A DNA stretch of 64,000 bases from Candidatus Eiseniibacteriota bacterium (GTDB taxonomy: Bacteria > Eisenbacteria > RBG-16-71-46 > CAZAMP01), in NCBI GenBank assembly GCA_965224245.1, contig OZ245046.1, forward strand, positions 1,888,001 to 1,952,000. Reading direction: 5' to 3'. A model generated the notes under the pieces. The model did not search any database. It worked only from the letters and a program-made list of their open reading frames with translations, and was not told the origin of the DNA. The position numbers and the translations under genes are program-made. Shown one piece after another: positions 6,328-53,627 of the stretch (its first letter is position 1; each line of letters opens with the position of its first letter).

Positions 6328-8367
6328 ATGATCGATCGTCACGACGGACGATTGACGTGGCGATCGGTCGTGGGGCCCGCTCTGGTCGCCCTCCTCGGCG
6401 TGGCGCTCGCGTCGACGGCCGTGTCCGCGATCCGGAACCAGTACCTCGCGCTGGGCTTCACGCGCACGCCGTGGATCGTCCTCGGGGACGAGATCCGATC
6501 GGCGGCGCCGATCGTCGGCGCCCTCGGGCTCTGGTGCGCGCTCGTGGTGCTCGCCATCGGGCGTCTGCCCCGCCGATCCCGGTCGCTCGACGCATCCGCG
6601 CCGGGCGCACGCTTCGCGAGTCCCGCGCGGCGTATCTCGCTGGCCATCGCCTCGGGTCTGGCCATCACCGCGCTCCTCCGGGTCGCCTACGCGTTCAATC
6701 GCTTCCACGCCGACGTGAACTGGTCGTGGCGGCGCGACTGGCACGGCCTGCCGGTTCCGGACGTCTTCTTCCGGCCGATGGTGTGGCTCCAGAACGCCGG
6801 CATCATCCTGGGTGCAGCCGTGTGCGGGTGGCTCCTCTACCGTCTCCTGTGGCTCGGTCTCGGGCGACGGCCGTCGGCGGCGCGGGCGCTCCACCGCGTG
6901 GCGGCGGCGTGGCCGACGATCGTGGCCACCACGCTGGCGCTCGTCGCCCTCCTGATCGTCGCGCACGCTCACCGCGCGCGCACCCCCGAGCGTCCCAACG
7001 TCGTCGTGATCTCGCTGGACACGCTGAGGGCGGATCACCTCGGTGCATACGGCTACTCCAGGCCGACCTCCCCCACGCTGGACGCGTTCGCCCGTGACGG
7101 GGTGCTCTTCGAGTGGACGATCGGGCAGGCCGAGGCCACGCTGCCGTCACACATGTCGATCTTCACCGCCAAGCTCCCGTCGGGACACGGCGTGTGGAAC
7201 CACAACCACGTGCTCGCTCCCCCGGTGGTCACGATGGCCGAGGCCTTCCGCGAGGAGGGATACCGGACGGCGGCATTCGTGGACGCCGGCCACATGCTGA
7301 AGCTGTTCGGCTTCGGGCAGGGCTTCGACGTCTATCACGATCGCTTCAAGCGCCTGGCGGGATCGGTCGACATGGCCATCGAGTGGCTGGACGCTCTCGG
7401 AGACGACGACCGGTACCTGCTGTTCGTACACGGGTACGACATCCACACGCCGTACTCGCCGTGGTCGCCGTACCGAAAGGACTTCGTCGATCCGACGTAC
7501 ACCGAGCCCGCGGTCGAGCCCAACGTGGATACGATGGCCAAGATCACCTGGCGGCTGGCGGCCGACTCGACGTACGTGGATCCGATCGACGCACGCAACC
7601 GGGAGTACATCGTCGCCTGCTACGACGCCGCCATTCGCTGGGCCGACGACCAGGTGGCGCGGCTCCTGGCGCACATGCAGGCGCGCGGAGACCTCGACGA
7701 CACGTGGGTGGTCGTTCTCTCCGATCACGGCGAGGAGTTCGGCGAGCACGGCGCGTACCTGCACGAGAAGCTCTACCACACGGTCACCCACGTGCCGCTG
7801 ATCGTACGACCGCCGTCCGGCCCCCTCGGGGCGCGCTTCGAGGCGCGGCGCGGGGCCCGCGTTTCCGACGTGACCAGCCTCGTGGACGTGTTCCCGACCC
7901 TGGCCGAGATCTCGTCGATCCCGGCGCGCGCCGACTGGGTGGGAGCGAGCCTCGTGCCCTACCTCGAAGGCCGGTCCGCTCGATCCGATCTCGCCGGCGA
8001 CGCTCCCGACTCGCTCGCGGCCGGCCGCCGGGCGGCGAGTCGGGTCGCATACAGCCAGAGCTATCGCTTCGGGCACGTCCGGGCCATCACGTCCGACTCG
8101 CTCCACATCCTCAGCAGCGAGGACGCACGCGATCACTTCGAGCTCTACCGCCATCGCGAGGACCGAGCCGAGCAGGACCCGACCCGGGTGATGCTCGGCG
8201 AGAACGGCGCGCTCGTCGACGGTCCTTACGACGCGCGAGGTCGCGCCCTCACGGGCCGGCTTCGCCAGTGGATGGACGAGACCCGCGCGCGCATCCTCGG
8301 CAACGAGGCGCGGCGCTTCCTCGGCTCGGACTTCAAGACCCTGCGGAACCTCGGCTACATCCAGTAG
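6328..8367 (+). CDS. Membrane-anchored sulfatase-like hydrolase/transferase
   Basis: N-terminal TM helices; PNVVVISLDTLRADH, TLPSH, SDHGEEF, VPLI. Confidence 0.85.
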   Translation: MIDRHDGRLTWRSVVGPALVALLGVALASTAVSAIRNQYLALGFTRTPWIVLGDEIRSAAPIVGALGLWCALVVLAIGRLPRRSRSLDASAPGARFASPARRISLAIASGLAITALLRVAYAFNRFHADVNWSWRRDWHGLPVPDVFFRPMVWLQNAGIILGAAVCGWLLYRLLWLGLGRRPSAARALHRVAAAWPTIVATTLALVALLIVAHAHRARTPERPNVVVISLDTLRADHLGAYGYSRPTSPTLDAFARDGVLFEWTIGQAEATLPSHMSIFTAKLPSGHGVWNHNHVLAPPVVTMAEAFREEGYRTAAFVDAGHMLKLFGFGQGFDVYHDRFKRLAGSVDMAIEWLDALGDDDRYLLFVHGYDIHTPYSPWSPYRKDFVDPTYTEPAVEPNVDTMAKITWRLAADSTYVDPIDARNREYIVACYDAAIRWADDQVARLLAHMQARGDLDDTWVVVLSDHGEEFGEHGAYLHEKLYHTVTHVPLIVRPPSGPLGARFEARRGARVSDVTSLVDVFPTLAEISSIPARADWVGASLVPYLEGRSARSDLAGDAPDSLAAGRRAASRVAYSQSYRFGHVRAITSDSLHILSSEDARDHFELYRHREDRAEQDPTRVMLGENGALVDGPYDARGRALTGRLRQWMDETRARILGNEARRFLGSDFKTLRNLGYIQ

Positions 8368-8402
8368 AGCGGCCGGCGGCGCCGTTGGGGGCGATCACGG
8401 GA

Positions 8403-9739
8403 TCAGCCGGCCAGGTCCACCGGCGTTCGCTGCCGCCATGCGGCGAGGTCCTGGAGGCTGCGGCGGTGCATCGCGAGCTGCCGGTCGCGCTTGTTCCGGA
8501 TGCGCGGAGCCGGCGGCGGCAGGAGCCCGAAGTTCACGTTCATGGGCTGAAAGCTCGTGACCTCGGGATTGGAGATGTAGCGCGTGAGCGCGCCGAGGAG
8601 CGTCGTCTCCGGCAGCGACTCGGGCTCGCGTCCCTCGACCCGAGCCAGCGCGCCGAGCGCGGCCACCAGGCCGGTTCCACACGCCTCGGTGTAGCCTTCG
8701 CACCCGGTGATCTGTCCGGCCAGGAAGAGCGCCGGCCGGTTGCGCACCTCGAGCGCGGGCGTCAGCACGCGGGGCGAGTCCACGTACGCGTTCCGGTGCA
8801 TGCTGCCCAGGCGCAGAAACTCCGCCTCCCTCAGCGCCGGGATCATCCGCAGGACGCGCTTCTGCTCGGGATAGGTGAGCCGGGTCTGACAGCCCACGAG
8901 GTTGTACATCTCGCCGCCCGCCTTCTCGCGGCGGAGCTGCACGACGGCGAACGGGCGGCGACCGGTGCGGGGGTCGACCAGCCCCACGGGCTTGAACGGC
9001 CCGAACAGCAGCGTCTTCTCGCCGCGCGACGCCAGCTCCTCGATCGGCAGGCACATCTCGAAGAGCTTCGACGACTCGAAGTCCTTGATCGCCACCCGGT
9101 CCGCCGAGACGAGCTCGCGGTGAAAGGCGCGGTACTCGTCCTCGGTCATCGGGCAGTTGACGTAGTCGTCCTCTCCGCGACCGTAACGACCGGCCGAGAA
9201 CGCCCGGTCGAGGTCGATCGACTCCGCGTCGACGATCGGGCTGATGGCGTCGAAGAAGTAGAGATCCTGCTCGCGACCGATCACGCGGCCGAGCGACGCC
9301 AGGAGCGCGTCGGTGGTCAGCGGGCCCGTCGCGAGCACCACGACACCGCTCCCGGGGACGGCGTGGACCTCGTCGCGGACCAGCTCGATCCCCGGATGCG
9401 CGGTGATCGCCTCCTCGACCGCGTTGGCGAACCGCTCGCGGTCCACGGCCAGCGCCTGGCCCGCCGGGACCGCGGCGGAGCGGGCGGCGTTCAGGATCAG
9501 CGAGTCGAAGGTCGCGATCTCGGCCTTGAAGAGCCCCGGCGCCGTGCCCTCGCGGAGCGACTTGAGGGAGTTCGTGCACACGAGCTCGGCCAGGCGACCC
9601 GTCTTGTGCGCGGGGGTGCGACGCCGGGGGCGCATCTCGAGGAGCCGCACCCGGTGTCCGCGGCGAGCGATCTGCCACGCGGCCTCGGTGCCGGCGAGCC
9701 CGCCCCCGATGACCGTGACCGCGACGCCGCCGGTCGGGG

Positions 9740-41833: not shown

Positions 41834-41862
41834 TTGACGGTTTGAGGGGCCCGTGGTAGACT
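41834..41862 (+). promoter_or_regulatory. sigma70-type promoter of the qhp-like operon
   Basis: TTGACG-N17-TAGACT with TG extension; AGGAG RBS at 41901, 7 nt before GTG 41913. Confidence 0.65.
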
Positions 41863-41912
41863 CCGCGGGTTCCATGTCGTGGGTCGACACAATCATCGCC
41901 AGGAGCGGGCCT

Positions 41913-43370
41913 GTGGCCGTCGCCTCGGTGCGTGCGAAGGCACGTGCGCTCAGCGTCAACGACTTTCATCTCTTCACCGAGGACGCTCATTCGCACGTGC
42001 TCGTCGTGCCCACGTCCGCGCTCTTCCGGGTCGACCCCGAGGGCCGGCGCATCCTCTCCGCGCTGGCCGACCAGCGTCGAGCCCCGTTCGATCTGGACGC
42101 CTTCCTCGCCCATCCGTCGGTGGACGTGCCGTCCGCGGATGCCGACGCGCTCGTGGAGTCCCTGATCGCCATGGGCGTCCTGACGCACCCCGAGGCCCGC
42201 GGCTCCGACCCCGGCATCCTGAAGGACGACCTCCTGCGTTTCACGACGCCGCCGGTGGGCTCGGTCACGGCGCTGGTGTCGAAGGACTGCAATCTCAAGT
42301 GCGGCTACTGCTACGCCGACCAGGGCCGCTTCGGCCAGTCCGAGGGCGGCGAGATGGACTTCGAGACCGCCAAACGGTTCATGGACATCCTCATCGCCGA
42401 GTCCGGAAACCTCCCCCAGATCCGATATCAGTTCCTGGGAGGCGAGCCGCTGTTGAACGCGAAGCTGATGCGCCGGATCATCGAGTACGGCCGGTCGGAG
42501 GCCGCGCGCATCGGCAAGCGCATCAGCTTCGGCATGACCACCAACGCGACGTTCCTGACGCCGGAGATCATCGGCTACTTCGTCGAGCACGACGTGACGT
42601 GCACGATCAGCATCGACGGTCCCGAGCACGTCAACGATCTGATCCGGGTCAATCACGCCGACAAGGGGTCGTACCAGCGGATCATGCGCGCGGTGGCGCC
42701 GCTTCTGGCGGTGCAGGAGACGCGCGCGCGGGTCACGGTCACCAAGCACTGCCTCGACATGGAGATGATCGTGGATCACCTCCTCGGCGAGGGGTTCAGC
42801 GAGGTCGGCCTGACCCCGGTCAACTCGACCGATCGGCGCTACGCGCTCGACGACGCCGATCGCGAGCGGCTGCTCGACGAGTTCCGCCGGCTGACACGCC
42901 GCTACGTGCGAGAGGCCCGGGAGGGCCGCCGGTTCGGGTTCGCGAACCTCAACGAGCTCCTCAAGCAGATCCACGAGGGACGGAGCCAGACACACCCGTG
43001 CGGCGCCGGCATCAGCATGTTCGCGACCGATGCGAACGGCACGATCTACCCGTGCCACCGCTTTCCGGGCCGCGAGGAGTACGCGATGGGCCACGTCGAC
43101 AGGGGCGTGGATCGCGAGAAGCAGGCCGCCTGGCTGGCGCAGGTCCACGTCCACAACCGGTCGGCCTGCAAGAGCTGCTGGGCGCGCTACATCTGCTCGG
43201 GAGGCTGCTACTACCTCTCGGCGATCGAATACGGAGACGTGTCGCAGACGTTCACACCGATATGTGATCATCTGCGCCAGTGGTATCAGATGGGTTTGGC
43301 TGCGTACGCCGACATCGTCGAGACCTGCCCGGAGCATCTGTCCCGGATGGGTCTCGCGTTGGAAGCCTGA
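41913..43370 (+). CDS. RRE-containing radical SAM/SPASM peptide maturase (QhpD/PeaB-like thioether-forming enzyme)
   Basis: N-terminal PqqD-like RRE; CNLKCGYC; GGEPLL; SPASM CGAG...YPCH...CKSCWARYICSGGC...C; directly upstream of the QhpC-like peptide. Confidence 0.9.
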   Translation: MAVASVRAKARALSVNDFHLFTEDAHSHVLVVPTSALFRVDPEGRRILSALADQRRAPFDLDAFLAHPSVDVPSADADALVESLIAMGVLTHPEARGSDPGILKDDLLRFTTPPVGSVTALVSKDCNLKCGYCYADQGRFGQSEGGEMDFETAKRFMDILIAESGNLPQIRYQFLGGEPLLNAKLMRRIIEYGRSEAARIGKRISFGMTTNATFLTPEIIGYFVEHDVTCTISIDGPEHVNDLIRVNHADKGSYQRIMRAVAPLLAVQETRARVTVTKHCLDMEMIVDHLLGEGFSEVGLTPVNSTDRRYALDDADRERLLDEFRRLTRRYVREAREGRRFGFANLNELLKQIHEGRSQTHPCGAGISMFATDANGTIYPCHRFPGREEYAMGHVDRGVDREKQAAWLAQVHVHNRSACKSCWARYICSGGCYYLSAIEYGDVSQTFTPICDHLRQWYQMGLAAYADIVETCPEHLSRMGLALEA

Positions 43371-43402
43371 CACCGCGAGCACGCGGGCGCGAAGGGGGAC
43401 GC

Positions 43403-43696
43403 TTGAAGCATTTCAAACCGATCAACAAGAAGAGCCGCGAGGCGGTCGCCGAGGGCGCGCCGGATGCGTTCGGCCACGCATGTGCCGCATGTTGCGCGTC
43501 GTTCGCTCCGGGATGGGAGGTCGGCCCGGCCGGCGACCTCGATCCGTGCCCGTGGCAGAACGACCTGCATCTCTGCTGGGTCACGTGCTTCTGGAACTAC
43601 CAGATTCCCGACGACTCGGCGTACTCGTCCTGGATGGACAGCTGCGGCAGCGTGGCCGTGGACTGGACGACGCTCTGCGTGGTGCCGGACGTCTAG
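43403..43696 (+). CDS. QhpC-like (QHNDH gamma subunit-like) Cys/Trp-rich precursor peptide, 97 aa
   Basis: TTG start after GAAGGGGG; leader MKHFKPINKK; core CCASFAPGWEV...CPWQNDLHLCWVTCFWNYQIPD...DWTTL matches the QhpC pattern CxxSFDPGWEV...C...DLYGCxxxCWWxxQVxD...DWxxL. Confidence 0.85.
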   Translation: MKHFKPINKKSREAVAEGAPDAFGHACAACCASFAPGWEVGPAGDLDPCPWQNDLHLCWVTCFWNYQIPDDSAYSSWMDSCGSVAVDWTTLCVVPDV

Positions 43697-43825: not shown

Positions 43826-44800
43826 ATGAAGCGAGTCATCCTGAGCGTTGCCGTAGCCGCCCTGGCCGTGACGTCGGCCGACGCGGCACGCGTGTACGTG
43901 ACGAGCAATCAGGTCAAGATCATCGACGACGTCGCCGGCGACGTCGTGGGCACGATCGATCTCGGGAAGTCCTACGTCCGGGACATGGTCTTCTCCGCGG
44001 ACGGGTCCACCGCGTACGTGGCCCACACCCGCGGCGTGGCGGTCGTGGACGTCGCGACGTCGGCCGTGACCGCCAACTGGTCGGACTGGACCGTGAGCGA
44101 CCTCGCGCTGGACGACGCCGGCGGGACGCTGAGCACGCTCGAGCACAAGGCGGGCTCGGGGTACCGCGTCGTCACGTACGACGTGTCGACCGGCGACACC
44201 GTCCGGAGCTACGCCGTCGACAACAAGGCGCTCGACCTGACCGCGCCACCGGCCGGCGGACGCGTGTTCACGACGAACCTGCACCGCGGCGTGGTCACGA
44301 GCTACGACCGGCTGACCGGAGAGGCCGGGTCCACGCTCGACGTCGCGCCCTCGGCCACGCCGGACGAGCTCGGGACGTACATCATCAAGTCGCTGATCTC
44401 CCCCGACGGCGGCACGATCTACGTCGTGCTCAACGGCGAGCGGGCCGGCATCACGACGATCTCGGCGACCACCGGCGAGACGACCGGTCAGATCCTCCTC
44501 GGGCACCCCGCGTACGTTCGCGACGCCGTCCTGTCCCCCGACGGCACGCGCATGTACATCTCGGCGCTCGACCACCTGTCGGTGGTGGATCTCGGGACGG
44601 GCACCGAGCTGGCGTGGGTCGACCTCGAGGTCACGCACCAGGGCATCGCGGTGTCGCCCGACGGCTCCCGCGTGTACCTCGTGAACCCGGTCTACGACAC
44701 CAGCGGCAGCCTGGCCGTCGTCGACGCGCGGACGTTCGAGCTGGTGAAGCGCATCTCGGTGCCCGACATCAGCCCGTATCGCGTCGCGATCGTTCCGTAA
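43826..44800 (+). CDS. Secreted YVTN/YncE-type beta-propeller (QhpB position)
   Basis: Sec signal peptide; repeats FSADGSTAYV, ISPDGGTIYV, LSPDGTRMYI, VSPDGSRVYL. Confidence 0.8.
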   Translation: MKRVILSVAVAALAVTSADAARVYVTSNQVKIIDDVAGDVVGTIDLGKSYVRDMVFSADGSTAYVAHTRGVAVVDVATSAVTANWSDWTVSDLALDDAGGTLSTLEHKAGSGYRVVTYDVSTGDTVRSYAVDNKALDLTAPPAGGRVFTTNLHRGVVTSYDRLTGEAGSTLDVAPSATPDELGTYIIKSLISPDGGTIYVVLNGERAGITTISATTGETTGQILLGHPAYVRDAVLSPDGTRMYISALDHLSVVDLGTGTELAWVDLEVTHQGIAVSPDGSRVYLVNPVYDTSGSLAVVDARTFELVKRISVPDISPYRVAIVP

Positions 44801-44841: not shown

Positions 44842-45852
44842 ATGGTCGTTGTCGTCAGCATCCTGGCCGCCCTCATCGCCGTCTGGCCGGCGAGGGCGGT
44901 CGATTTCTTTGCCGCGGGCGACGCGCTGTACGGCGTGGATCCCGTCGGCGCGTCCATCCTGTGTCGGTCCGAGCCGCTCCCGGCCACGGCCAGCGACGTC
45001 GAGGTCGACCCCCACGGGCGCTACGTGGCCGTGACCACCGCCGCGGGGCTCACACTCCACGACCTCGAGTGCGCGCCGATCGGCGTCCTCGAGCTGGGCG
45101 TTCTGGACTGCGTCGAGCTGTCCCCGGACGGCGAGACGATCTACGTCCTCGTGCACCCGGCCGCCCGCCGGCGCGACGTCGGCGGACAGCACCGGCTCCT
45201 GGCCATCCCCTTCGCCGAGCCGCGCGAGCCGGTGGAGGTGTGCCGGGTGGGCGCACTCAGCTACGACATGTTTCTCTCGACCGACGGGTCCACCCTCGTG
45301 ATCACGAACAACATCGGACGGGACGTGGACGTGGTCGACGTGGCCTCGGGCAGCGTACGAACCCTTACCATCGCCGCCGGGGCCGAGCCCGAGAACGAGC
45401 TGGCCGTTCTCAGGGCGGGGCTCTGGGATGGTGCACGCTTCCGCCTGGGCGAGAGCGCGCGCACGCGAAAGCTGATTCTCTGGGACATCGACGTCGCCTC
45501 GGGAACGATGACGAAGGCCGAGCAGCCCTGGCGGATGCATGCCCTCGGGCTGGAGCGGGTAGGTGACGTGCTGGTCGTGAACGGTCTGGACCGGATCGCC
45601 TGGGGCCCGTGGTCCTCGTCCGGACTCGACGAAGAGCGCGACGTGCTCCGGGACGTCACCGGCATCGCCGCGTTCTCGAGGGACGGGTCGTCTCCCGAGG
45701 CATACCTGATCGCGCCCGCCGCGGACGGCTCACACCTCATGCGGCTCCGCGGCGGCACCGTGGAGGAGGTGCTGACGCTCCCCGGCAAGGTCACCACACT
45801 GGTGAGCGCCCCGGGCGCGACGTCCCCCGCCGCGACGCCGGTCGAGCCGTGA
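44842..45852 (+). CDS. Second secreted beta-propeller protein
   Basis: Signal peptide ending PARA; VDPHGRYVAV, LSPDGETIYV, LSTDGSTLVI. Confidence 0.7.
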   Translation: MVVVVSILAALIAVWPARAVDFFAAGDALYGVDPVGASILCRSEPLPATASDVEVDPHGRYVAVTTAAGLTLHDLECAPIGVLELGVLDCVELSPDGETIYVLVHPAARRRDVGGQHRLLAIPFAEPREPVEVCRVGALSYDMFLSTDGSTLVITNNIGRDVDVVDVASGSVRTLTIAAGAEPENELAVLRAGLWDGARFRLGESARTRKLILWDIDVASGTMTKAEQPWRMHALGLERVGDVLVVNGLDRIAWGPWSSSGLDEERDVLRDVTGIAAFSRDGSSPEAYLIAPAADGSHLMRLRGGTVEEVLTLPGKVTTLVSAPGATSPAATPVEP

Positions 45853-47606
45853 CCCCGCCTCCTCCGACGCGAGGGGAGCTCCGCTGGCTGTTCGATCGCG
45901 TCCGGCGCTACCGCGGTCGGCTCGCGATCCTGATCGGCCTGTTCGCCGTCGGCGCGGCCCTCGGGCTCGTGTACCCCCTGGTGCTCCGGTTCCTGATCGA
46001 TCGCGTGTTCACCGACCGGGACGGCCGCCACCTCCTGCCCGCGCTGGGCGTGCTCCTGCTGCTGTCGCTGGTGCAGGTCGTGGTGACCCAGGTCAGCACC
46101 TACCGGTACACGCAGCTGGCCGGCCGCGTCGTCCTGGATCTCCGGATGCTGCTCTTCCGGCACCTCGAACGTGTTCCGCTCGAGTTCCATGCCGAGCGCC
46201 GCGCGGGTGACATCGCCTCGCGCATCGGGGGCGACATCGCCGAGGTGCAGCAGGCCGCCACCGGCTCGGTGATGGCGCTCGTGACGTCGGTCCTGACGCT
46301 CCTGGCCACCGTGGGCGTGCTCGTGTATCTCGACCCGGTGCTGTTTGCGCTGTCGCTAGCGCTCGTCCCGTTCTCGTGGCTGATCGCCCGACGGTTCGCC
46401 GATCCCGTCCAGGACGCGTCCCGAGAGATCCGCGAGGCGAGCGCCGATCTGGGCTCGACGCTCCTCGACTCGATCGTCGGCCAGCACTTCATCCGGGCGC
46501 ACGGGCTCGAGACCGGCGCCGCCCGGCGGTTCTTCGGAGACGGACGCGAGATCTTCCGCTCTGTCCTCCGCGTCACGCGGCTGAACTGCTGGTCGAGCGG
46601 CCTGAGCAGCGTGCTCTCGACGGTCACCACGCTCTTCGTGCTCGGCATCGGCGGCTGGCGCGTCATCCGGGGCGACATCACGCTGGGGACGCTCCTGGCG
46701 TTCCAGATGTACGTCACCGGACTACACGGACCGATCCGGGGGTTCGTGTCGCTGTACCTCCGTCTCCAGCGCTCGGCCGTCTCCATCCGTCGCATCCGCG
46801 AGATCCTGGAGGTCCCGAGGCTCTCGCGGGGCGGATCGCGCGACGCCGACGACATCGCCGGCCACGTCACGTTCGAGCACGTCTCGTTCGCGTACGAGCC
46901 GGGAGCCGACGTGCTCACCGACGTCTCGTTCACCGTCGCGCCCGGCGAGCGCCTGGCCGTGGTCGGGCCGTCGGGCATCGGCAAGTCCACGCTCCTGGAT
47001 CTCGCGATCGGACTGCGCGTGCCCACCGCGGGACGCGTCCTCCTGGACGGCGTGCCGGTCGACGACTACCGACCCGACGCGCTTCGACGCCGGGTCGGCG
47101 TGGTCTCGCAGGACGTCTTCATGTTTCACGCCTCGATCGGCGAGAACCTCCGCCTGGTGGACCGCACGCTGACCGACGACGCGATCTGGGACGCGCTCGC
47201 GGCGGTCGAGCTGGCCGACTGGGTGCGAACGCTGCCCGAGAGTCTCGACACGTCGGTGGGCGAGCGGGCGCTCCGGCTCTCCGGTGGCCAGCGGCAACGG
47301 CTGGCGATGGCGCGCGCGCTCCTGCGTCGCCCCCGGGTGTTGATTCTCGACGAGGCCACGAGCGCGCTCGACGAGGTGACCGACGCGCTGATCCAGCGCG
47401 CGCTGGAGCCCGCCCTGGCGTCGGCGGCCACGATCGTGGCCAGCCACCGGAGATCGGTCATCGAGGCGGCCGATCGGGCGATCCTCCTCCACCAGGGACG
47501 CATCCACGCCACCGGCTCCCCGACCGACGTCCTGGCCCGGCTGGCACCGCGCGGCGGGCCGCCCCACGCCCCGTCGGCGCCGACGCGGACCCCGCTCACG
47601 CCATGA
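45849..47606 (+). CDS. ABC exporter, TMD+NBD fusion (QhpF-like)
   Basis: TM domain; GPSGIGKS, LSGGQRQR, ILDEATSALD; GTGA overlap. Confidence 0.92.
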   Translation: MTPPPPTRGELRWLFDRVRRYRGRLAILIGLFAVGAALGLVYPLVLRFLIDRVFTDRDGRHLLPALGVLLLLSLVQVVVTQVSTYRYTQLAGRVVLDLRMLLFRHLERVPLEFHAERRAGDIASRIGGDIAEVQQAATGSVMALVTSVLTLLATVGVLVYLDPVLFALSLALVPFSWLIARRFADPVQDASREIREASADLGSTLLDSIVGQHFIRAHGLETGAARRFFGDGREIFRSVLRVTRLNCWSSGLSSVLSTVTTLFVLGIGGWRVIRGDITLGTLLAFQMYVTGLHGPIRGFVSLYLRLQRSAVSIRRIREILEVPRLSRGGSRDADDIAGHVTFEHVSFAYEPGADVLTDVSFTVAPGERLAVVGPSGIGKSTLLDLAIGLRVPTAGRVLLDGVPVDDYRPDALRRRVGVVSQDVFMFHASIGENLRLVDRTLTDDAIWDALAAVELADWVRTLPESLDTSVGERALRLSGGQRQRLAMARALLRRPRVLILDEATSALDEVTDALIQRALEPALASAATIVASHRRSVIEAADRAILLHQGRIHATGSPTDVLARLAPRGGPPHAPSAPTRTPLTP

Positions 47607-48331
47607 TCGACCTTCGTGCCTCGCGCGGCTCTGGCATCCGCGTCGCCATCGTCGATTCCGGCGTCGTGGATCGGCACCCACACGTGGGCCCGGTCGCCGC
47701 GGGGTTCGGCGTCGACCCGACGCCCGACGGCCCGCGTCTCAGCGAGCGCTTCGACGACGTGGCCGGGCACGGTACCGCGTGTGCGGGAGTCGTGCGCTGG
47801 GGCGCCCCCGACGCCGCGATCGTAGCCGCGCGCGTGCTCGACGCACGCCTGACCGCGCGCGCCGACGCGCTGGAGCTCGCGCTCGACGCGCTCGTGGCGA
47901 GGCGGGTCGCCATCGTCAATCTCTCGCTGGGTGTCCCCGACCAGGAGGCGCGGGCGCGCCTGGCCCCCGTCACCGATCGCCTGACCGACGCCGGCGTGCT
48001 GATCGTCTCGGCGGTGCGTCCCGACGGTCGGCCGAGCTGGCCGTCCGACGACGCGCGAGCGTTCGACGTTGCCGCCGACCCCTCCCTCTCCCGCTGGCAG
48101 TATCGGGCCGGTGGACCCGGCGAGGCCACGTTCGTCGCCGCACCCACTCCTCGCCCCATTCCCGGCCGGCCGGAGACGGGCAACTACTCGGGCACGAGCT
48201 TCGCCGCGCCCCGGATCGCCGCGCTGCTCGCACGCGCGCTGGCGATCGACCCCACGTTGACGCGTGATACGCTGATCGACGTCCTGATCGCCAACGCACC
48301 GCACTTCGATCACACGAGGGCCTCGTCATGA
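47603..48331 (+). CDS. Small cytoplasmic subtilisin-like (S8) peptidase (QhpE-like)
   Basis: Triad motifs VAIVDSG, GHGTAC, SGTSFAAP; VNLSLG; no signal or propeptide; ATGA overlap. Confidence 0.88.
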   Translation: MIDLRASRGSGIRVAIVDSGVVDRHPHVGPVAAGFGVDPTPDGPRLSERFDDVAGHGTACAGVVRWGAPDAAIVAARVLDARLTARADALELALDALVARRVAIVNLSLGVPDQEARARLAPVTDRLTDAGVLIVSAVRPDGRPSWPSDDARAFDVAADPSLSRWQYRAGGPGEATFVAAPTPRPIPGRPETGNYSGTSFAAPRIAALLARALAIDPTLTRDTLIDVLIANAPHFDHTRASS

Positions 48332-49917
48332 CGTCGCGAGACGGCCGCGCGCGCAGGCTGCGCATCGGCTTCTTCCAGTACGAGCTCTCGCACCCGAACA
48401 ACGCCCCCCACGTGGGCATGTGCCTGCTCCTGGCCGACCTGCGTCGCGCGGGACACGAGGTCGACGCCGCCCTAGTGCACGCGCAGGCCGTCGACCTCTT
48501 GATCGATGCCATCCGCGATCGCGCGTACGACTTCGTCGCGTTCGACGCGATCTTCACCGTGCCGGTCCTCGACCGGGTGAAGGCCGCGTGCCCGGACGTC
48601 CCCATCCTGGTCGGCGGGAACAATGCGCTGGCGCTGATGCTGCTCTCGCGCGCGGACTTCGCGATCGTCGGCCCCGCGCGTTCGGCGATGCTCCGGTTCG
48701 TCGAGGGCGTCGCGTCGGAGACCCTCCCGGCCGGCGTACCGAACCTGTTCGTCCGCCTTCCGGACGGCCGCGTGGACCACTCCGGCGTTCACGCCGACTG
48801 GGCCGTGCACGGGGAGCTGGCCGACTACGCGCCCGATCTGGACTGGGGGTATCTGGGTCCGTCCCGCGCGCCCGGATCCAACACCCGCTTCGCGAGCGTC
48901 GTCCCCGAGTGGGGCTGCGCGTTCCAGAACGACTCGCTGACGGGACCGGCGTTCGATGCGCTGGAGCGGGGCGGCGTCAGCGACGTCGTGTCGTCTCTAC
49001 CCCTGACCGACGCGGCGCGGCGGGCCGTGCAGCCCTACGCCTCCAACACGCGCGGATGCTCGTTCTGCGCGTTTCGGTACCAGCCGTACACGATCGATCG
49101 GGTCACGACCACCATCTCGCGCGTGATCGATCAGATGACGTTTCTGTCCACGCGATACGGCGTGACCGAGTTCTCCATCCAGAGCGAGAACCCGTTTCGC
49201 TTCCTCGAGCCGCTGATCACGGCGCTCTCGGAATCCACGCTCAGGGTGGACAAGCTCCTGATCCGCACGTTCCCGGCCATCCTCGCCCGCAACGCGGACG
49301 TGGTCCGCCAGGCCCTCTCGCATGCGCTCGACCGGGGCATCCGAGTTCGCCTGCAGCAGCTCGGGTTCGAGAACTTCTCGCAGCCCGAGCTGGATCGGCT
49401 GGGCAAGGGCATCTCGGTGGAAGAGAACGTGGCCGCCGCCCGTCTCCTGACCGAGCTGTCGGACGCACTCGGCGACGGCGTCGAGCTGTTCGGCGGCCAC
49501 GGGTTCATCCTGTTCACGCCGTGGACGCGTCCCTCGGACATCGTGCAGAACGTCCGCACCGTGGCGAACGACGCCCCGTTTCTCGCCGACTCCTTGACGC
49601 CCGCGTCACGGCTCTGCTTCTACGATCCCTTCAACCCGATCTTTCGGCTGGCCGAGCGCGAGGGCCTGGTCGTGCGCGTCCCGCACGACTACACCCTCGA
49701 CTTCCGGTACGCCGATCCCGACACCCGCCGGATGCTGAAGCTGGCCGCGGCGCTCGAGGGACACCTGGTCCGGCACGGAGCCGAGGCCGGCTCGTGGCTG
49801 TCGACCACGGTGCTCCGCGAGACCGCATCGCTGTTCGCGGGGTCGGACACAACCCCCCGAGATCCGGAAGCGCTCTTCCGGACGGCCGAGGCCCGCGTCA
49901 GGAGCGCCATCGCCTAG
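48328..49917 (+). CDS. Cobalamin-binding radical SAM protein with split cluster motif
   Basis: N-terminal B12-binding-like fold (LRRAGHEV, PILVGG, ADFAIVG, VPNL); WGC-x46-CSFC; GFENFSQPELDRLGKG; FILFTPWT. Confidence 0.75.
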   Translation: MTSRDGRARRLRIGFFQYELSHPNNAPHVGMCLLLADLRRAGHEVDAALVHAQAVDLLIDAIRDRAYDFVAFDAIFTVPVLDRVKAACPDVPILVGGNNALALMLLSRADFAIVGPARSAMLRFVEGVASETLPAGVPNLFVRLPDGRVDHSGVHADWAVHGELADYAPDLDWGYLGPSRAPGSNTRFASVVPEWGCAFQNDSLTGPAFDALERGGVSDVVSSLPLTDAARRAVQPYASNTRGCSFCAFRYQPYTIDRVTTTISRVIDQMTFLSTRYGVTEFSIQSENPFRFLEPLITALSESTLRVDKLLIRTFPAILARNADVVRQALSHALDRGIRVRLQQLGFENFSQPELDRLGKGISVEENVAAARLLTELSDALGDGVELFGGHGFILFTPWTRPSDIVQNVRTVANDAPFLADSLTPASRLCFYDPFNPIFRLAEREGLVVRVPHDYTLDFRYADPDTRRMLKLAAALEGHLVRHGAEAGSWLSTTVLRETASLFAGSDTTPRDPEALFRTAEARVRSAIA

Positions 49918-49993: not shown

Positions 49994-51898
49994 CTAGCGT
50001 GATCCCCATCGGTCGGCGTCCAGACCGTTCTCGGCACGTCGGAGTCGCACGAGCTCGCCCTCCATCGCGTCGAGCGGGGGCCAGGGGCTCAGGAGATAGC
50101 CGTGCGGCCGCCCGCGCGCGAGGAACCGCTCCGCCAGACGAACGGCCGGCGCGGACCGCGGTCCCTCGGTGAGCCGCACGAGGTTGTAGGCCGCGATCGG
50201 AAACCCGGGGTCGGCGGCCATCGCCTCGCGGAAGTGCCGCTCGGCGGCGTCCCGATCGCCGCGAAACACCGCGATGGTGCCCAGCCCGCACGACACCTCT
50301 GCCCCGGGGGCCCCGACGCGTCCGGCGGCGCGAAACCCGTCGGCCGCCTCGTCGAGCTCGCCGCGCTCGAGGCGCGTGATCGCATGGAAGTGCCGGAGTC
50401 GCGCGTCCTCGGGGCGCCGGGACAGCCCGGCGGCGACGTCGGCCAGGGCCGCGTCGACGAGGCCGACCCGGAGGAGGTGACCCGCCCGCTCGAGGTAGGC
50501 CAGCGCCGTCGCTTCGCCGCGCTCGGCGTCCGAGGTGTAGGCGGTGAGCCCCGGGAACATGCGCTCGATCGGCCAGCGCTCGACCGCGCGAGAGAGCGTG
50601 CGCCGCGCGGACGTCCGCATCAGTGCGATCCGCTCCGGGGTCAGCGCGTTGCCGGGATGACGCCGCACCTCGGTGAGGGCGAGATCGAGCACGGTCACCG
50701 GGCCGCGCGCGGCCAGCTCCATCCACATGCCGTAGTCCTGGGCCCGCGTCAGGGACTCGTCGTACGGGGCATCGCCCAGCGCCCGGAGGTGCTCGGTGCG
50801 CACCATGACCGTGGGCCCCAGGAAATGCGAGCCCCCCAGGAGCAGCCGTAGCGTCTGACCGGGATCGAAGTTCACGACCGGTCGCCACTCGAGGAGATCC
50901 CCGGTGGGCCCGATCGCGTAGTGGTGCGTCGCGCCGAAGACGGCGTCCGGATGTGCGGCCATGTGCGCCGCTTGCAGCTCGAGCTTGCGCGGCAGAAAGC
51001 GATCGTCGTCGTCGAGCCAGGCCACGAGCTCGGTCTTCACGTGCCGCAGCGCCTCGTTCATCGCCCCGGCCTGTCCGCGACGCTCGATCTCGATCAGCGT
51101 GATCGCCTCGCCGAACGGGTGCGCGATCTCGCGCGTGACGGGTGCGCTCCCGTCGGACACCACGATCACGGCGGCCGCCCGTGCGGTCTGCCCGAGCGCG
51201 CTCCGGATGGACTGGGCCAGCCACGGCGAGCGTCCGAGCGTCGGGATCACGACGGTGACCGGAACCCGATCGGCGTCCACGTCGACGTGTACGACGCCAC
51301 TCGCGGTCGCCGCATCCGCACGCCCCACGTCCGCGTGGCCCGCGCCGTCGACGTCGGTGCCGGCGTCCGGCTCGTCCGCCGCGGACGCCTCCACCCGCAC
51401 GAGGTAGCGCCCCACCTCCCCGATCGGCACCGGATACGCGAGACGGGCCAGCGGCGTGTAGTCCACGAGGACCGGCGTCGGCGATGGATGTCGTCCCGGG
51501 ATCACGTGATCGATCCGGCGCTCGCCGCGCCCGACGACGAGCACGACGCCGCCGGGAACCACGTGCTCGAGCACGTCGGCGGCGCGGAGATCCCCCCACG
51601 CCCCGTCCGCATCGAGAACGATCGTGTCCCAGACGCCGTCCAGCGTGCGATCGGCGCCGTGTGTGACGTAGTCGGCCACCCCCAGCTCCGCGGCACGACG
51701 CAGCAGATGCAGGCGGAGGACGGGATCGGCCACGCCGTGCATCACGCTCGGTACGCGCTCCCAGAGCGCCTCCGGGATGCCGTCGCACGGGACGCCGAGC
51801 ACGAGCGTGTCGCCGGACGCCAGGGCCGCGATGCGCGCGGCGAGCCGGCGCTGGCGCGGGACCGCTCCCTCGTGAAAGCCGCCGGGCCCGCTCAGCAT
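49994..51898 (-). CDS. Family 2 glycosyltransferase with C-terminal TPR region
   Basis: VTVVIPT, SALGQT, VSDGS, WLDDDD, QDYGMW; TPR-like helices. Confidence 0.85.
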   Translation of the reverse strand: MLSGPGGFHEGAVPRQRRLAARIAALASGDTLVLGVPCDGIPEALWERVPSVMHGVADPVLRLHLLRRAAELGVADYVTHGADRTLDGVWDTIVLDADGAWGDLRAADVLEHVVPGGVVLVVGRGERRIDHVIPGRHPSPTPVLVDYTPLARLAYPVPIGEVGRYLVRVEASAADEPDAGTDVDGAGHADVGRADAATASGVVHVDVDADRVPVTVVIPTLGRSPWLAQSIRSALGQTARAAAVIVVSDGSAPVTREIAHPFGEAITLIEIERRGQAGAMNEALRHVKTELVAWLDDDDRFLPRKLELQAAHMAAHPDAVFGATHHYAIGPTGDLLEWRPVVNFDPGQTLRLLLGGSHFLGPTVMVRTEHLRALGDAPYDESLTRAQDYGMWMELAARGPVTVLDLALTEVRRHPGNALTPERIALMRTSARRTLSRAVERWPIERMFPGLTAYTSDAERGEATALAYLERAGHLLRVGLVDAALADVAAGLSRRPEDARLRHFHAITRLERGELDEAADGFRAAGRVGAPGAEVSCGLGTIAVFRGDRDAAERHFREAMAADPGFPIAAYNLVRLTEGPRSAPAVRLAERFLARGRPHGYLLSPWPPLDAMEGELVRLRRAENGLDADRWGSR

Positions 51899-51917: not shown

Positions 51918-53480
51918 TCACGACGCGGGGCTCCAGAAACGCGCGGGTCGGATCGGTCCTCCGAAGCGCGGACTCTCCAGCAACTCGGCGTAGCGCTCGA
52001 CCATGCGCTCGCTCTCGCCCGGCACGCGGAGCCCGGGCAGATGCTCCATCGTCCGGAACAGCTCGGGCGTCACGCGATAGGCGAGGCGCTCGCGCTGGCG
52101 GAGCCGGAGCTTCAGCGTGGCCTCGACGCGTGCGTCGGCGGGAAGCGCATCGCTCTCGACACTGATCGCACCGGCGTCGATGGGCGCGTGCCAGCCCAGG
52201 GACAGCGCCTCGAAGTCACGCGGCGCCTCCATCCGGAGCCGGACGCCGTACGCCCCCGGATCGCGGAAGATCGCGGTCTCCGGAAACGCGACCACCGGGA
52301 GCACGTTCGTCATGACGCCTCGCTCGTTCAGCGCGGCGATCATCGCATCGGAGGCCGCGATCGTGTCGGGCGTCTCGCCGGGGAGTCCCACCATCAACGA
52401 CGACTGCAGGTGCGTCAGGCCGCGGGCCGCGAGCCGGTCGAATGCGGCCAGCAGCGCGTCGTCGGTGATGTCACGTCCCGCGCGGCGGCGCACGCGCTCG
52501 GCACCCGCCTCCACGCCGAGCCACACACGAAGGCGAGGGGTGCGGGCCGAGATGCGCGCCAGGGCATCCGCGGCGCGGTCGGTGATCATGCCCGGGTGAA
52601 CGTCCACGAGGACGGCGGCCGCGTCACCGTGGGCCTCGAGCGCGGCGGCCAGCGCCTCCAGCGGCCTGGGGCCGGAGAAGTGCTCGGGCAGGTACAGCGG
52701 CACCTTGCGGGCCAGCATGTCCGGTATCTGCTCGTCCAGCTGACGGGCGAGGGACTTCTGAAGCGCGGGAAACAGCCGCTCGGAGTTCAGTGAGCAAAAC
52801 GTGCACGGCTTGGGGCAGCGCCCGCGCATGAACGGCAGGCCGATGTAGCGACCTCGCCCGCGCGGCCACACGAGATCGGGGTCGAACGAGAGCGTGACCA
52901 CCTCGTCCGGCGGCGTGGGCGCCGCCGGGGTACCGTCGCCGACGAGCACACCGTCCCGATCGCGGCGCACGACCCCCGGAACCGACGAGACCCGATCGGC
53001 ATCCAGGCCGGCCAGGAGCGCCGGATACGCCGCGTCACCGTCGCCGATCACGATCGAGTCCACGGCCGGCACCGAGCGCAAAATGGGCTCGGCGAGGGCT
53101 CCGGCGTGAACGCCGCCGAGCGTGACGTGCACCGACGGATCGAGCTCCTTGATCCAGCCGGCCACCGCGAACGCACCGGCGCTGTGGTACGACCAGTGGC
53201 ACTGGATCCCGACCGCCCGCGGTGCCATCTCGTCCAGAACCCGTGCGAGAAGATGACGCCAACGATCTTCCCCCCAGCGACTTCGGGCCTCCATTCCCGA
53301 GATGGTGGCCGCCGCGTCGTGCAGCTGGACCAGCACCGGATCGTGCCCGTGACGGCGGCACGCCTCGGCGACGTACAGGAGCCCCATCGGGATGATGTCG
53401 GCCGTTCCGTGCCAGTCGCCCGGACTCTGCATCGGATACGGCGGTGGATGAATGAGGACGGGGTTCTTCACCGGTTCCAT
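51918..53480 (-). CDS. Cobalamin-dependent radical SAM protein
   Basis: LIHPP, PMGLLYVA, LGGVHA, VDSIVIGDGD, RGRCPKPCTFCS, GVEAG, MVGLPGET. Confidence 0.85.
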   Translation of the reverse strand: MEPVKNPVLIHPPPYPMQSPGDWHGTADIIPMGLLYVAEACRRHGHDPVLVQLHDAAATISGMEARSRWGEDRWRHLLARVLDEMAPRAVGIQCHWSYHSAGAFAVAGWIKELDPSVHVTLGGVHAGALAEPILRSVPAVDSIVIGDGDAAYPALLAGLDADRVSSVPGVVRRDRDGVLVGDGTPAAPTPPDEVVTLSFDPDLVWPRGRGRYIGLPFMRGRCPKPCTFCSLNSERLFPALQKSLARQLDEQIPDMLARKVPLYLPEHFSGPRPLEALAAALEAHGDAAAVLVDVHPGMITDRAADALARISARTPRLRVWLGVEAGAERVRRRAGRDITDDALLAAFDRLAARGLTHLQSSLMVGLPGETPDTIAASDAMIAALNERGVMTNVLPVVAFPETAIFRDPGAYGVRLRMEAPRDFEALSLGWHAPIDAGAISVESDALPADARVEATLKLRLRQRERLAYRVTPELFRTMEHLPGLRVPGESERMVERYAELLESPRFGGPIRPARFWSPAS

Positions 53481-53627
53481 CCGAGGGAGGGCGGTCCGAT
53501 CGGCCACCGCGGGTGTGCGGGCGCCGCCGGACTATAGCACACGGCACGCGACGTACGCGGCTCCCCCGACGCCGACAAGTCGTTCTTCGTCAGTATGTTG
53601 GGCGGGACGGCGGCTCCACCGGCCCCA

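Follow-up and report, generated by a model that had tools for sequence, protein, structure and literature searches.

Among the described systems closest to the one reported here is quinohemoprotein amine dehydrogenase (QHNDH). According to the portions of PMC7876137 used here, the radical S-adenosylmethionine (rSAM) enzyme QhpD joins Cys to Asp or Glu through three thioethers in QhpC, the γ subunit, while the leader is still attached; Trp43 is dihydroxylated by QhpG, the 28-residue leader is removed by QhpE, and export is by QhpF. The same portions suggest that the final oxidation involves the haems of the α subunit, and that Asp33 has a catalytic role (PMC7876137). Here we describe a QhpC-like precursor with eight cysteines, encoded by a short gene in a 64,000-nucleotide stretch of DNA (the window, i.e., the whole stretch analysed) from a Candidatus Eiseniibacteriota bacterium (contig OZ245046.1). 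With modest confidence, and on grounds of homology, we regard its mature form as a small quinone-bearing subunit, with internal crosslinks, of a relative of QHNDH that has no haem and is associated with a propeller.

Kinship of the precursor with QhpC

Two family models recognised the translated gene: Pfam PF08992 (QH-AmDH_gamma) with 36.9 bits (cut-off 25; E 3.7e-9), and NCBIfam NF037958 (QH_gamma) with 50.5 bits (cut-off 50; E 1.6e-13). The profile match to QhpC is significant, as the assignment made in an earlier note on this DNA would require, and annotation databases would call the gene QH-AmDH gamma. When the precursor was compared by phmmer with all PDB chains, good E-values were returned for solved γ subunits only (1.8e-7 for 1jmx_G and 1.3e-6 for 1jju_C), and a profile of the family branch to which the precursor belongs (described below) matched the same chains with E-values of 8.3e-15 and 6.9e-15, respectively. 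A genome search revealed no second QhpC in the organism's own genome.

HMMER alignments to the solved γ subunits, i.e., QhpC of Paracoccus denitrificans (1JJU chain C) and of Pseudomonas putida (1JMX chain G), pair C30 with Cys7, E39 with Glu16, C49 with Cys27, D54 with Asp33, C58 with Cys37, C62 with Cys41, W64 with Trp43 and D70 with Asp49. Like QhpC, the precursor consists of a leader and a core of about 75 residues, and the two have in common a C-x8-E ring within xxPGWE (here C30-E39), a C-x7-D ring (C62-D70), a Cys/Trp pair for cysteine tryptophylquinone (CTQ) with C-x5-W spacing (C58/W64), and an Asp before the CTQ Cys. Unlike QhpC, the precursor has a C-x4-D second ring (C49-D54) in place of the canonical C-x5-D, with a one-residue gap right after C49 in both HMMER alignments, Ala (A35) at the Asp position of SFDPGWE, four extra cysteines, and an invariant C-x5-DW...LC-x-x-PD tail. 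The extra cysteines are counted as four because each solved chain has four Cys within the stretch that aligns, residues 3-74 of 79. The earlier note had claimed the retention of the two rings and the CTQ pair, the shortening of C49-D54 by one residue relative to Cys27-Asp33, the Asp-to-Ala change and the four cysteines beyond mature QhpC, and these alignments bore it out on each point. The comparison supports the assignment of the gene product as a QhpC-family precursor that retains the CTQ pair along with the rings of C-x8-E and C-x7-D spacing. An AlphaFold2 (AF2) model of the monomer, made from a 46-row alignment, had a mean predicted local distance difference test score (pLDDT) of 43.3, too low for Cys-Cys or Cys-Asp distances to be read from it.

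Translation from a TTG codon places cysteines at residues 27, 30, 31, 49, 58, 62, 81 and 92 and tryptophans at 38, 51, 59, 64, 77 and 88, giving the length, the numbers of Cys and Trp and the Cys positions reported before. Also as reported, the TTG is enclosed by a longer open reading frame (ORF), which starts with GTG and encodes 138 aa (43280-43696); this frame would overlap the 3' end of the upstream rSAM gene, whose stop lies at 43370, 32 nt upstream of the precursor start. We favour the TTG because the purine-rich sequence GAAGGGGGA lies directly 5' of it, because third-position GC (in a window of 70.6% GC) enters the precursor frame at about 43400-43425, rising to 0.82-0.94, and because the starts of homologues, which read M-K-H-F-K-P-I-N-K-K, coincide with the same residue. 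The boundary between leader and core is placed at about residues 23/24, residue 3 of mature 1JJU_C being aligned with A26. In the interval between the precursor gene and the propeller gene that follows it, we found no terminator-like site and no unusually stable RNA fold (z-score 1.53).

The branch and its extra cysteines

Homologues were collected with a word-indexed search (21 at E<=1e-8) and an exhaustive search of 1.84 billion representatives (27 at E<=0.001), and 23 related loci came from scans of species-representative genomes with the patterns DWxxLCV[VI]PD and [APS]SF[ASI]PGWEV. Loci carry labels beginning with L, and individual proteins labels beginning with P. In the columns of 46 aligned branch sequences, E39, C49, D54, C58, C62, W64, W77, C81, D87, C92, P95 and D96 are present in all, the invariance of C92 and D96 being partly by construction, since DWxxLCV[VI]PD was itself a search pattern; C30 and D47 are found in 44, D70 in 42, C31 in 39 and C27 in 20. 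Two pattern-free searches gave the same split, between closer homologues with both C81 and C92 and distant ones with a canonical ring and no C..PD tail; the exceptions among the closer homologues without both cysteines (P0017, P0031 and P0032) are truncated, fragmentary or frameshifted. Of 16 representatives whose second ring is the canonical C-x5-D, 13 carry a Cys where the precursor has C81, in each case within C-x5-DW, and the tail is missing from all 16. The signatures of the branch are therefore the contracted second ring and the L-C-x-x-P-D end, and not C81. Signatures that the earlier note had not listed are this C-terminal L-C92-x-x-P95-D96 motif, the absence of QhpA and QhpG, and a link to U32 proteins, the last two of which are taken up below. 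The conservation of residues across the 46 sequences led us to reject a decayed relic.

This branch of QhpC relatives is distinct and rare. Of 206 genomes of the phylum, 7 have the precursor, and carriers of the branch are uncultured Eisenbacteria-like, Gemmatimonadota, Myxococcota-like and marine metagenome-assembled lineages. The closest locus is L010, with a precursor 74% identical. In L030, L031 and P0021-P0024 (Gemmatimonadota-type copies and related metagenome copies) the spacing of the CTQ pair is longer by a 2- or 3-residue insertion; in the L030 and L031 copies the insertion is of three residues and separates the CTQ Cys from the Cys that follows it. The precursor gene is repeated in tandem in L030 (948-1586, two copies), L031 (10001-10646, two) and L032 (4418-5804, three plus one broken), and the L032 copies have 10 Cys, with Gly at the position of D70. 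The set P0033-P0051 holds the canonical-ring relatives with the fifth Cys in C-x5-DW, a residue that both solved γ subunits lack; in one member, P0051 (320 aa), a region with two CxxCH haem motifs is joined to a QhpC-like C-terminus.

The extra cysteines themselves proved to be conserved in three cases of four, C81 and C92 in 46/46 and C31 in 39/46. Judged by these columns, C31 and C27 are less constrained than the C-terminal pair, and three of the extra cysteines are family features, with C27 a subgroup feature. The earlier note had pointed to C81-x5-D87 as a repeat of the canonical Cys-to-Asp spacing. The pair is indeed invariant in the branch; it is not special to this precursor, however, since most canonical-ring relatives have it as well. 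The suggestion that C27xxC30C31 binds metal fared less well as a family feature: C27 occurs in fewer than half of the sequences and independently of C31 (C27 without C31 in L032-type sequences and P0012, C31 without C27 in 26 sequences), so a conserved metal site there is unlikely for the family.

On sequence grounds, C81/D87 and C92/D96 would form either two further Cys-to-Asp thioethers (C-x5-D and C-x3-D) or a C81-C92 disulfide, and the precursor may hold one to three extra thioethers or disulfides. It is close to evenly balanced, if slightly on the doubtful side, that the subunit has the role proposed here and that its extra cysteines form structural periplasmic disulfides only (C81-C92, and C27-C31 where both are present), with no new rSAM thioethers. 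C81 and C92 always occur together, and the number of extra cysteines is even in both window-type (four) and L032-type (six) peptides. The tryptophan tryptophylquinone (TTQ) subunit of methylamine dehydrogenase (MADH) is held by six disulfides, as stated in the portions of PMC7876137 used here. D87-W88 is kept in canonical QhpC that has no Cys at position 81, so that D87 need not be a thioether acceptor. Such a scheme is opposed by the 26 of the 46 sequences that have seven Cys (three extra), in which at least one extra Cys must lie outside any disulfide, and by the lone Cys at the C81 position, always in C-x5-D-W, of canonical-ring relatives that have no C92. The independent occurrence of C27 (alone in L032-type sequences and P0012) and C31 (alone in the 26) also speaks against it, and a simple disulfide staple leaves unexplained why P95 and D96, at the very C-terminus, are invariant.

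That at least one extra thioether is made, with C81-D87, C92-D96 and perhaps C31-D47 as candidates, is a possibility that we hold tentatively, leaning against it. It would fit the invariance of D87, D96 and P95, the odd number of extra cysteines in 26/46, the widespread lone C-x5-DW Cys of canonical-ring relatives, and the presence in the branch of six conserved donor cysteines and six conserved acidic residues.

Operon partners, missing subunits and candidate hydroxylases

The precursor gene lies in a tightly packed operon of seven genes (Table 1), in which frame analysis and start codons indicate 4-nt overlaps among the last four. Frequencies in related loci were obtained by tblastn of the operon proteins against the 23 loci, several of the misses being due to short contigs.

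Table 1. Genes of the precursor operon, in positions of the window
Feature	Position	Strand	Remarks
QhpD-like rSAM/SPASM maturase	41853..43370	+	start may be ATG 41874
QhpC-like precursor	43403..43696	+	97 aa, then TAG; leader ~1-23, core ~24-97; 8 Cys
Exported 7-bladed YVTN-type β-propeller, in QhpB gene position	43826..44800	+	signal-peptide-like N-terminus
Second exported protein, possibly propeller-like	44842..45852	+	336 aa; hydrophobic N-terminus
QhpF-like ABC exporter (permease + ATPase)	45849..47606	+	no peptidase domain; Pfam ABC_membrane, ABC_tran; GTG overlaps upstream stop
QhpE-like subtilisin-type leader protease	47603..48331	+	242 aa; Pfam Peptidase_S8; ATGA overlap with ABC gene
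B12-binding/rSAM-like protein	48328..49917	+	Pfam B12-binding, 33.4 bits; translationally coupled to protease gene

In kind, the neighbours resemble those of QhpC (pathway in the portions of PMC7876137 used here): the precursor gene lies next to that of a QhpD-like rSAM enzyme and is followed by the gene of a 7-bladed propeller, and an ABC exporter and a subtilisin-like protease are encoded further on. The propeller is present in 23/23 loci, after the precursor in 22 and upstream of it in L032. Its AF2 model had a pLDDT of 92.2, and in a Foldseek search of the PDB with this model 1jju_B ranked second (E 4.5e-17, TM 0.72/0.70) and 1jmx_B fourth, the first rank being taken by a generic YVTN propeller; against the QhpB sequence model (TIGR03907) it scored 40 bits, with a cut-off of 223.2. 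A complex prediction that paired the core (24-97) with residues 21-324 of the propeller, for which a 24-row alignment was supplied, gave a score of 0.02 against a mark of 0.32; it was run without controls and is not used as evidence. The second exported protein matched no Pfam family and TIGR03866 weakly (E 0.002); it is 39% identical to the product of the gene in the same position in L010, and a protein of about 350 aa, also exported, is encoded there in L049 and L050.

For the rSAM enzyme, the best NCBIfam match was TIGR03906 (quino_hemo_SAM, 387.1 bits, cut-off 453), followed by the PapB ranthipeptide maturase model NF047865 (301.2 bits, cut-off 340) and the SCIFF model TIGR03974 (248 bits). 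It also matched Pfam Radical_SAM, and its translation contains SPASM cysteines and the motif CNLKCGYC. Translation probably begins no earlier than the ATG at 41874; residue 37 is where the alignment to TIGR03906 opens. Homologues were found in 20/23 loci, adjoining the precursor in nearly all and lying downstream of the propeller in L031. The ABC exporter was found in 16/23 loci and the S8 protease in 12/23, and the best NCBIfam match of the protease was NF049966 (QhpE, 125.3 bits, cut-off 165).

The system differs from QHNDH in its missing parts and in partners that score below equivalog cut-offs. No dihaem α subunit was found: in the organism's own genome (97% complete) the best score on the QhpA model TIGR03908 was 23 bits against a cut-off of 274, and QhpA was over the cut-off in none of ten other carrier genomes (of 31 carrier genomes or loci), with a best score of 25 bits, both searches having been made without a positive-control genome. 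QhpG (NF049967) was likewise absent from the own genome, with a best score of 78.6 bits against a cut-off of 240 and a null result when the QhpG-like protein of L011 was used as query. These absences rule out a canonical QHNDH γ subunit. That the gene encodes merely a divergent γ subunit of an ordinary qhp operon is accordingly very improbable, even though the equivalog model NF037958 is just reached and the order rSAM-γ-propeller-...-protease is the qhp order, since the same absences, extended for QhpA to the ten other carriers, go with a contracted second ring, four extra cysteines and partner genes that all fall below equivalog cut-offs.

Two small proteins encoded beside Gemmatimonadota-labelled precursors (L030:90-896 and L032:1746-2267) have weak matches to QhpA domain IV (PF09100; 20.5 and 25.9 bits), with a TIGR03908 score of 19.7 bits also among these matches, and the L030 protein carries a C-terminal sorting domain of the type IX secretion system kind as well. 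From these matches, they may be a remnant of the α subunit.

A hydroxylase would be expected to accompany the family if Trp64 becomes a quinone. Between the propeller and ABC genes, most loci carry two genes that are absent from the window operon, a Peptidase_U32 gene (14/23) and a partner that we call X (16/23). The U32 proteins of the clusters score 109-144 bits on Pfam PF01136, and X is a distant relative of them (hhalign 74.7%, E 2.6e-5, 71 columns) with four invariant Cys. The two resemble the UbiU-UbiV two-protein pair. They are unlike UbiU-UbiV and TrhP in scoring far under the equivalog cut-offs (UbiU 86 versus 440, TrhP 67-102 versus 534), in that the substrate proposed for them is a peptidyl Trp, and in being, in this organism, fused and outside the operon. 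The sole U32 gene of the genome encodes a 705-aa X-U32 fusion (G000:C1:37295-39412, i.e., L041:9296-11413 and L033:253-2370), about 1.9 Mb from the window; its identity to the two proteins of the L010 cluster is 38% and 42%. The genes around it, a lactonase-type propeller gene and genes for unknown exported proteins, show no link to QhpC. In the phylum, X occurs in 2 of 206 genomes, and both carry the precursor. Searches of PDB sequences matched no solved structure with the U32 profile and only de novo-designed TIM barrels with the X profile (best E 5e-4).

QhpG-like and U32-pair genes alternate within the one precursor family. X and U32 lie inside the operon in L010, and neither is present in L011. 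At L011:2006-3475 (-), 6.5 kb from a branch precursor and in a locus without U32 genes, lies a QhpG-like flavoprotein gene (NF049967, 230 bits, cut-off 240). Three further carriers, of one genus, have the gene order of the window and no hydroxylase in cis; the third of them, with a genome 56% complete, has no QhpG-like gene. A hydroxylase of either kind thus accompanies the family in most cases, which we take as supportive and not as proof, the numbers being small and the carriers related.

The same gene set could also serve an exported ranthipeptide-like RiPP (ribosomally synthesised and post-translationally modified peptide), i.e., a free cross-linked and possibly quinone-bearing signal, redox shuttle, metal binder or antimicrobial, with the propellers either unrelated or receptors. 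The class of chemistry proposed here is that of ranthipeptide and SCIFF maturases of the PapB and CteB types, a leader-directed linkage of Cys sulphur to the β or γ carbon of Asp/Glu, and the maturase also scores on the PapB model. The cluster provides a leader together with an rSAM/SPASM enzyme, protease and ABC exporter, the operon extends by coupling to a B12-type rSAM-like gene, no haem partner was found in this genome or the ten other carriers, and precursors stand in tandem in L030, L031 and L032 and as a pair on one contig (P0022/P0024). We nevertheless consider a free RiPP distinctly improbable. The core, of about 74 residues, holds every cofactor and active-site residue of QhpC, with D54 and W64 in 46/46, whereas ranthipeptide and SCIFF peptides are much shorter. 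A signal-peptide propeller with a QhpB-like fold always stands alongside the precursor, and a Trp hydroxylase, QhpG-like or of the U32 pair, travels with the family. The maturase stays below the PapB and SCIFF cut-offs, and on both models below its own score on the QhpD model, and its substrate is a 97-aa member of PF08992. The protease and ABC exporter are also canonical parts of QHNDH biogenesis, according to the portions of PMC7876137 used here.

Some further observations concern the surroundings. A sigma-70-like promoter match (41834-41862) overlaps the first GTG of the rSAM gene (41853). The last gene of the operon has weak BchE and RiPP C-methyltransferase matches, and its translation contains no canonical CxxxCxxC, only GCSFC; homologues adjoin the cluster in L010 (53% identity), L011 (42%), L049 (35%) and L050 (34%). 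Beside it are a GT2-TPR glycosyltransferase gene (49994-51898, -) and a second B12-rSAM gene (51918-53507, -). Homologues of the first B12 gene and of GT2-TPR flank the clusters of L010 and L011, and those of all three flank L049 and L050; conservation extends to the genes upstream, for a sigma-54 activator, M50 and PD40. It may reflect synteny alone and no shared function. Elsewhere in the genome, another QhpD-like rSAM/SPASM gene (G000:C1:2436428-2437582, L009; TIGR03906, 337 bits) has no Cys-rich ORF of at least 45 aa within 1.5 kb. In L018, a seemingly conserved ORF upstream of the rSAM gene (7194-8567, +) was rejected as a spurious frame lying antisense to a gene for an M28 peptidase.

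Proposed maturation and its implications

In the scheme that we propose, the conserved N-terminal leader (MKHxKPxNKKA..., about 23 residues) would be the docking site for the QhpD-like rSAM/SPASM enzyme encoded next to the precursor, which would install the thioethers C30-E39, C49-D54 (one residue smaller than the QhpC ring) and C62-D70. One to three further crosslinks might be made beyond the QhpC set. Trp64 would be hydroxylated, and because the organism's own genome is without QhpG, the likely enzyme would be the O2-independent U32-type pair, here as the X-U32 fusion acting in trans. The QhpE-like protease would cut off the leader and the QhpF-like ABC exporter would move the peptide to the periplasm, where its partner would be the 7-bladed propeller, itself exported by Sec, perhaps with the second exported protein as well. 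A bond between C58 and oxidised Trp64 would complete a cofactor of the CTQ type, and the conserved D54 would be the active-site Asp. Because there is no haem subunit, the final oxidation and electron transfer would need another partner.

For the same reason, the two-part layout would be nearer to MADH than to QHNDH. We propose a likeness to methylamine and aromatic amine dehydrogenases (AADH), in which a small cross-linked Trp-quinone subunit sits on a 7-bladed propeller and there is no haem (drawn partly from portions of PMC7876137). The propeller profile matched the AADH and MADH heavy chains weakly (E 2e-4 to 5e-3), and the precursor showed no sequence relation to TTQ light subunits in any search made. 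The predicted cofactor of the precursor is Cys-Trp (CTQ), whereas that of the TTQ enzymes is Trp-Trp, and cytoplasmic rSAM thioethers are predicted here as against disulfides in MADH.

Several points weigh against a haem-less QHNDH relative with a quinone-bearing subunit. The margin on NF037958 is only 0.5 bit, and in a six-frame genome search the score was 49.1, below the cut-off. The operon partners fall below the curated cut-offs of the QhpD, QhpE and QhpB models, and in sequence the propeller is no nearer to QhpB than to other YVTN propellers (E 3e-25 for 1l0q versus 4.5e-10 for 1jju_B). The window operon contains no hydroxylase, the X-U32 fusion lies among unrelated-looking genes, and QhpG-like genes (153-193 bits) are found elsewhere in the genomes of two of the three same-order carriers. 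The two to four tandem precursor copies in L030, L031 and L032 form a pattern seen more often with RiPP products than with enzyme subunits, and D70 is lost in L032-type copies. The built-in part of the C92/D96 invariance and the QhpA searches without a positive-control genome count on the same side, as does the fact that we infer the crosslinks, the quinone and the subunit assembly from homology.

In its fullest form, which we think unlikely, the proposal would have up to six rSAM thioethers (C30-E39, C31-D47, C49-D54, C62-D70, C81-D87 and C92-D96), more than in any known protein, in a haem-less two-component quinoprotein. A U32 iron-sulphur hydroxylase, here fused and in trans, would form its quinone independently of O2. 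Among the papers listed from the literature covered, which left out most subscription journals, we found no description of a haem-less QhpC-like branch with extra cysteines, and nothing joining quinohemoprotein amine dehydrogenase to U32 proteins or tryptophylquinone to UbiU.

Protein-derived quinone cofactors are few, and the tryptophylquinone routes described in the portions of PMC7876137 used here all have O2-dependent or haem-dependent steps. The branch keeps all the cofactor residues, apparently without a haem subunit and, in this genome, without the O2-dependent hydroxylase, and its invariant extra Cys/Asp pairs offer a probe for the number and sizes of the rings that a QhpD-type enzyme installs in one polypeptide. 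The U32 proteins in the clusters raise the question of whether a tryptophan quinone can be made anaerobically. If the quinone is indeed built by a U32 enzyme, protein-derived tryptophylquinones would for the first time have a route that needs no O2, and U32 hydroxylases their first substrate that is a peptide.

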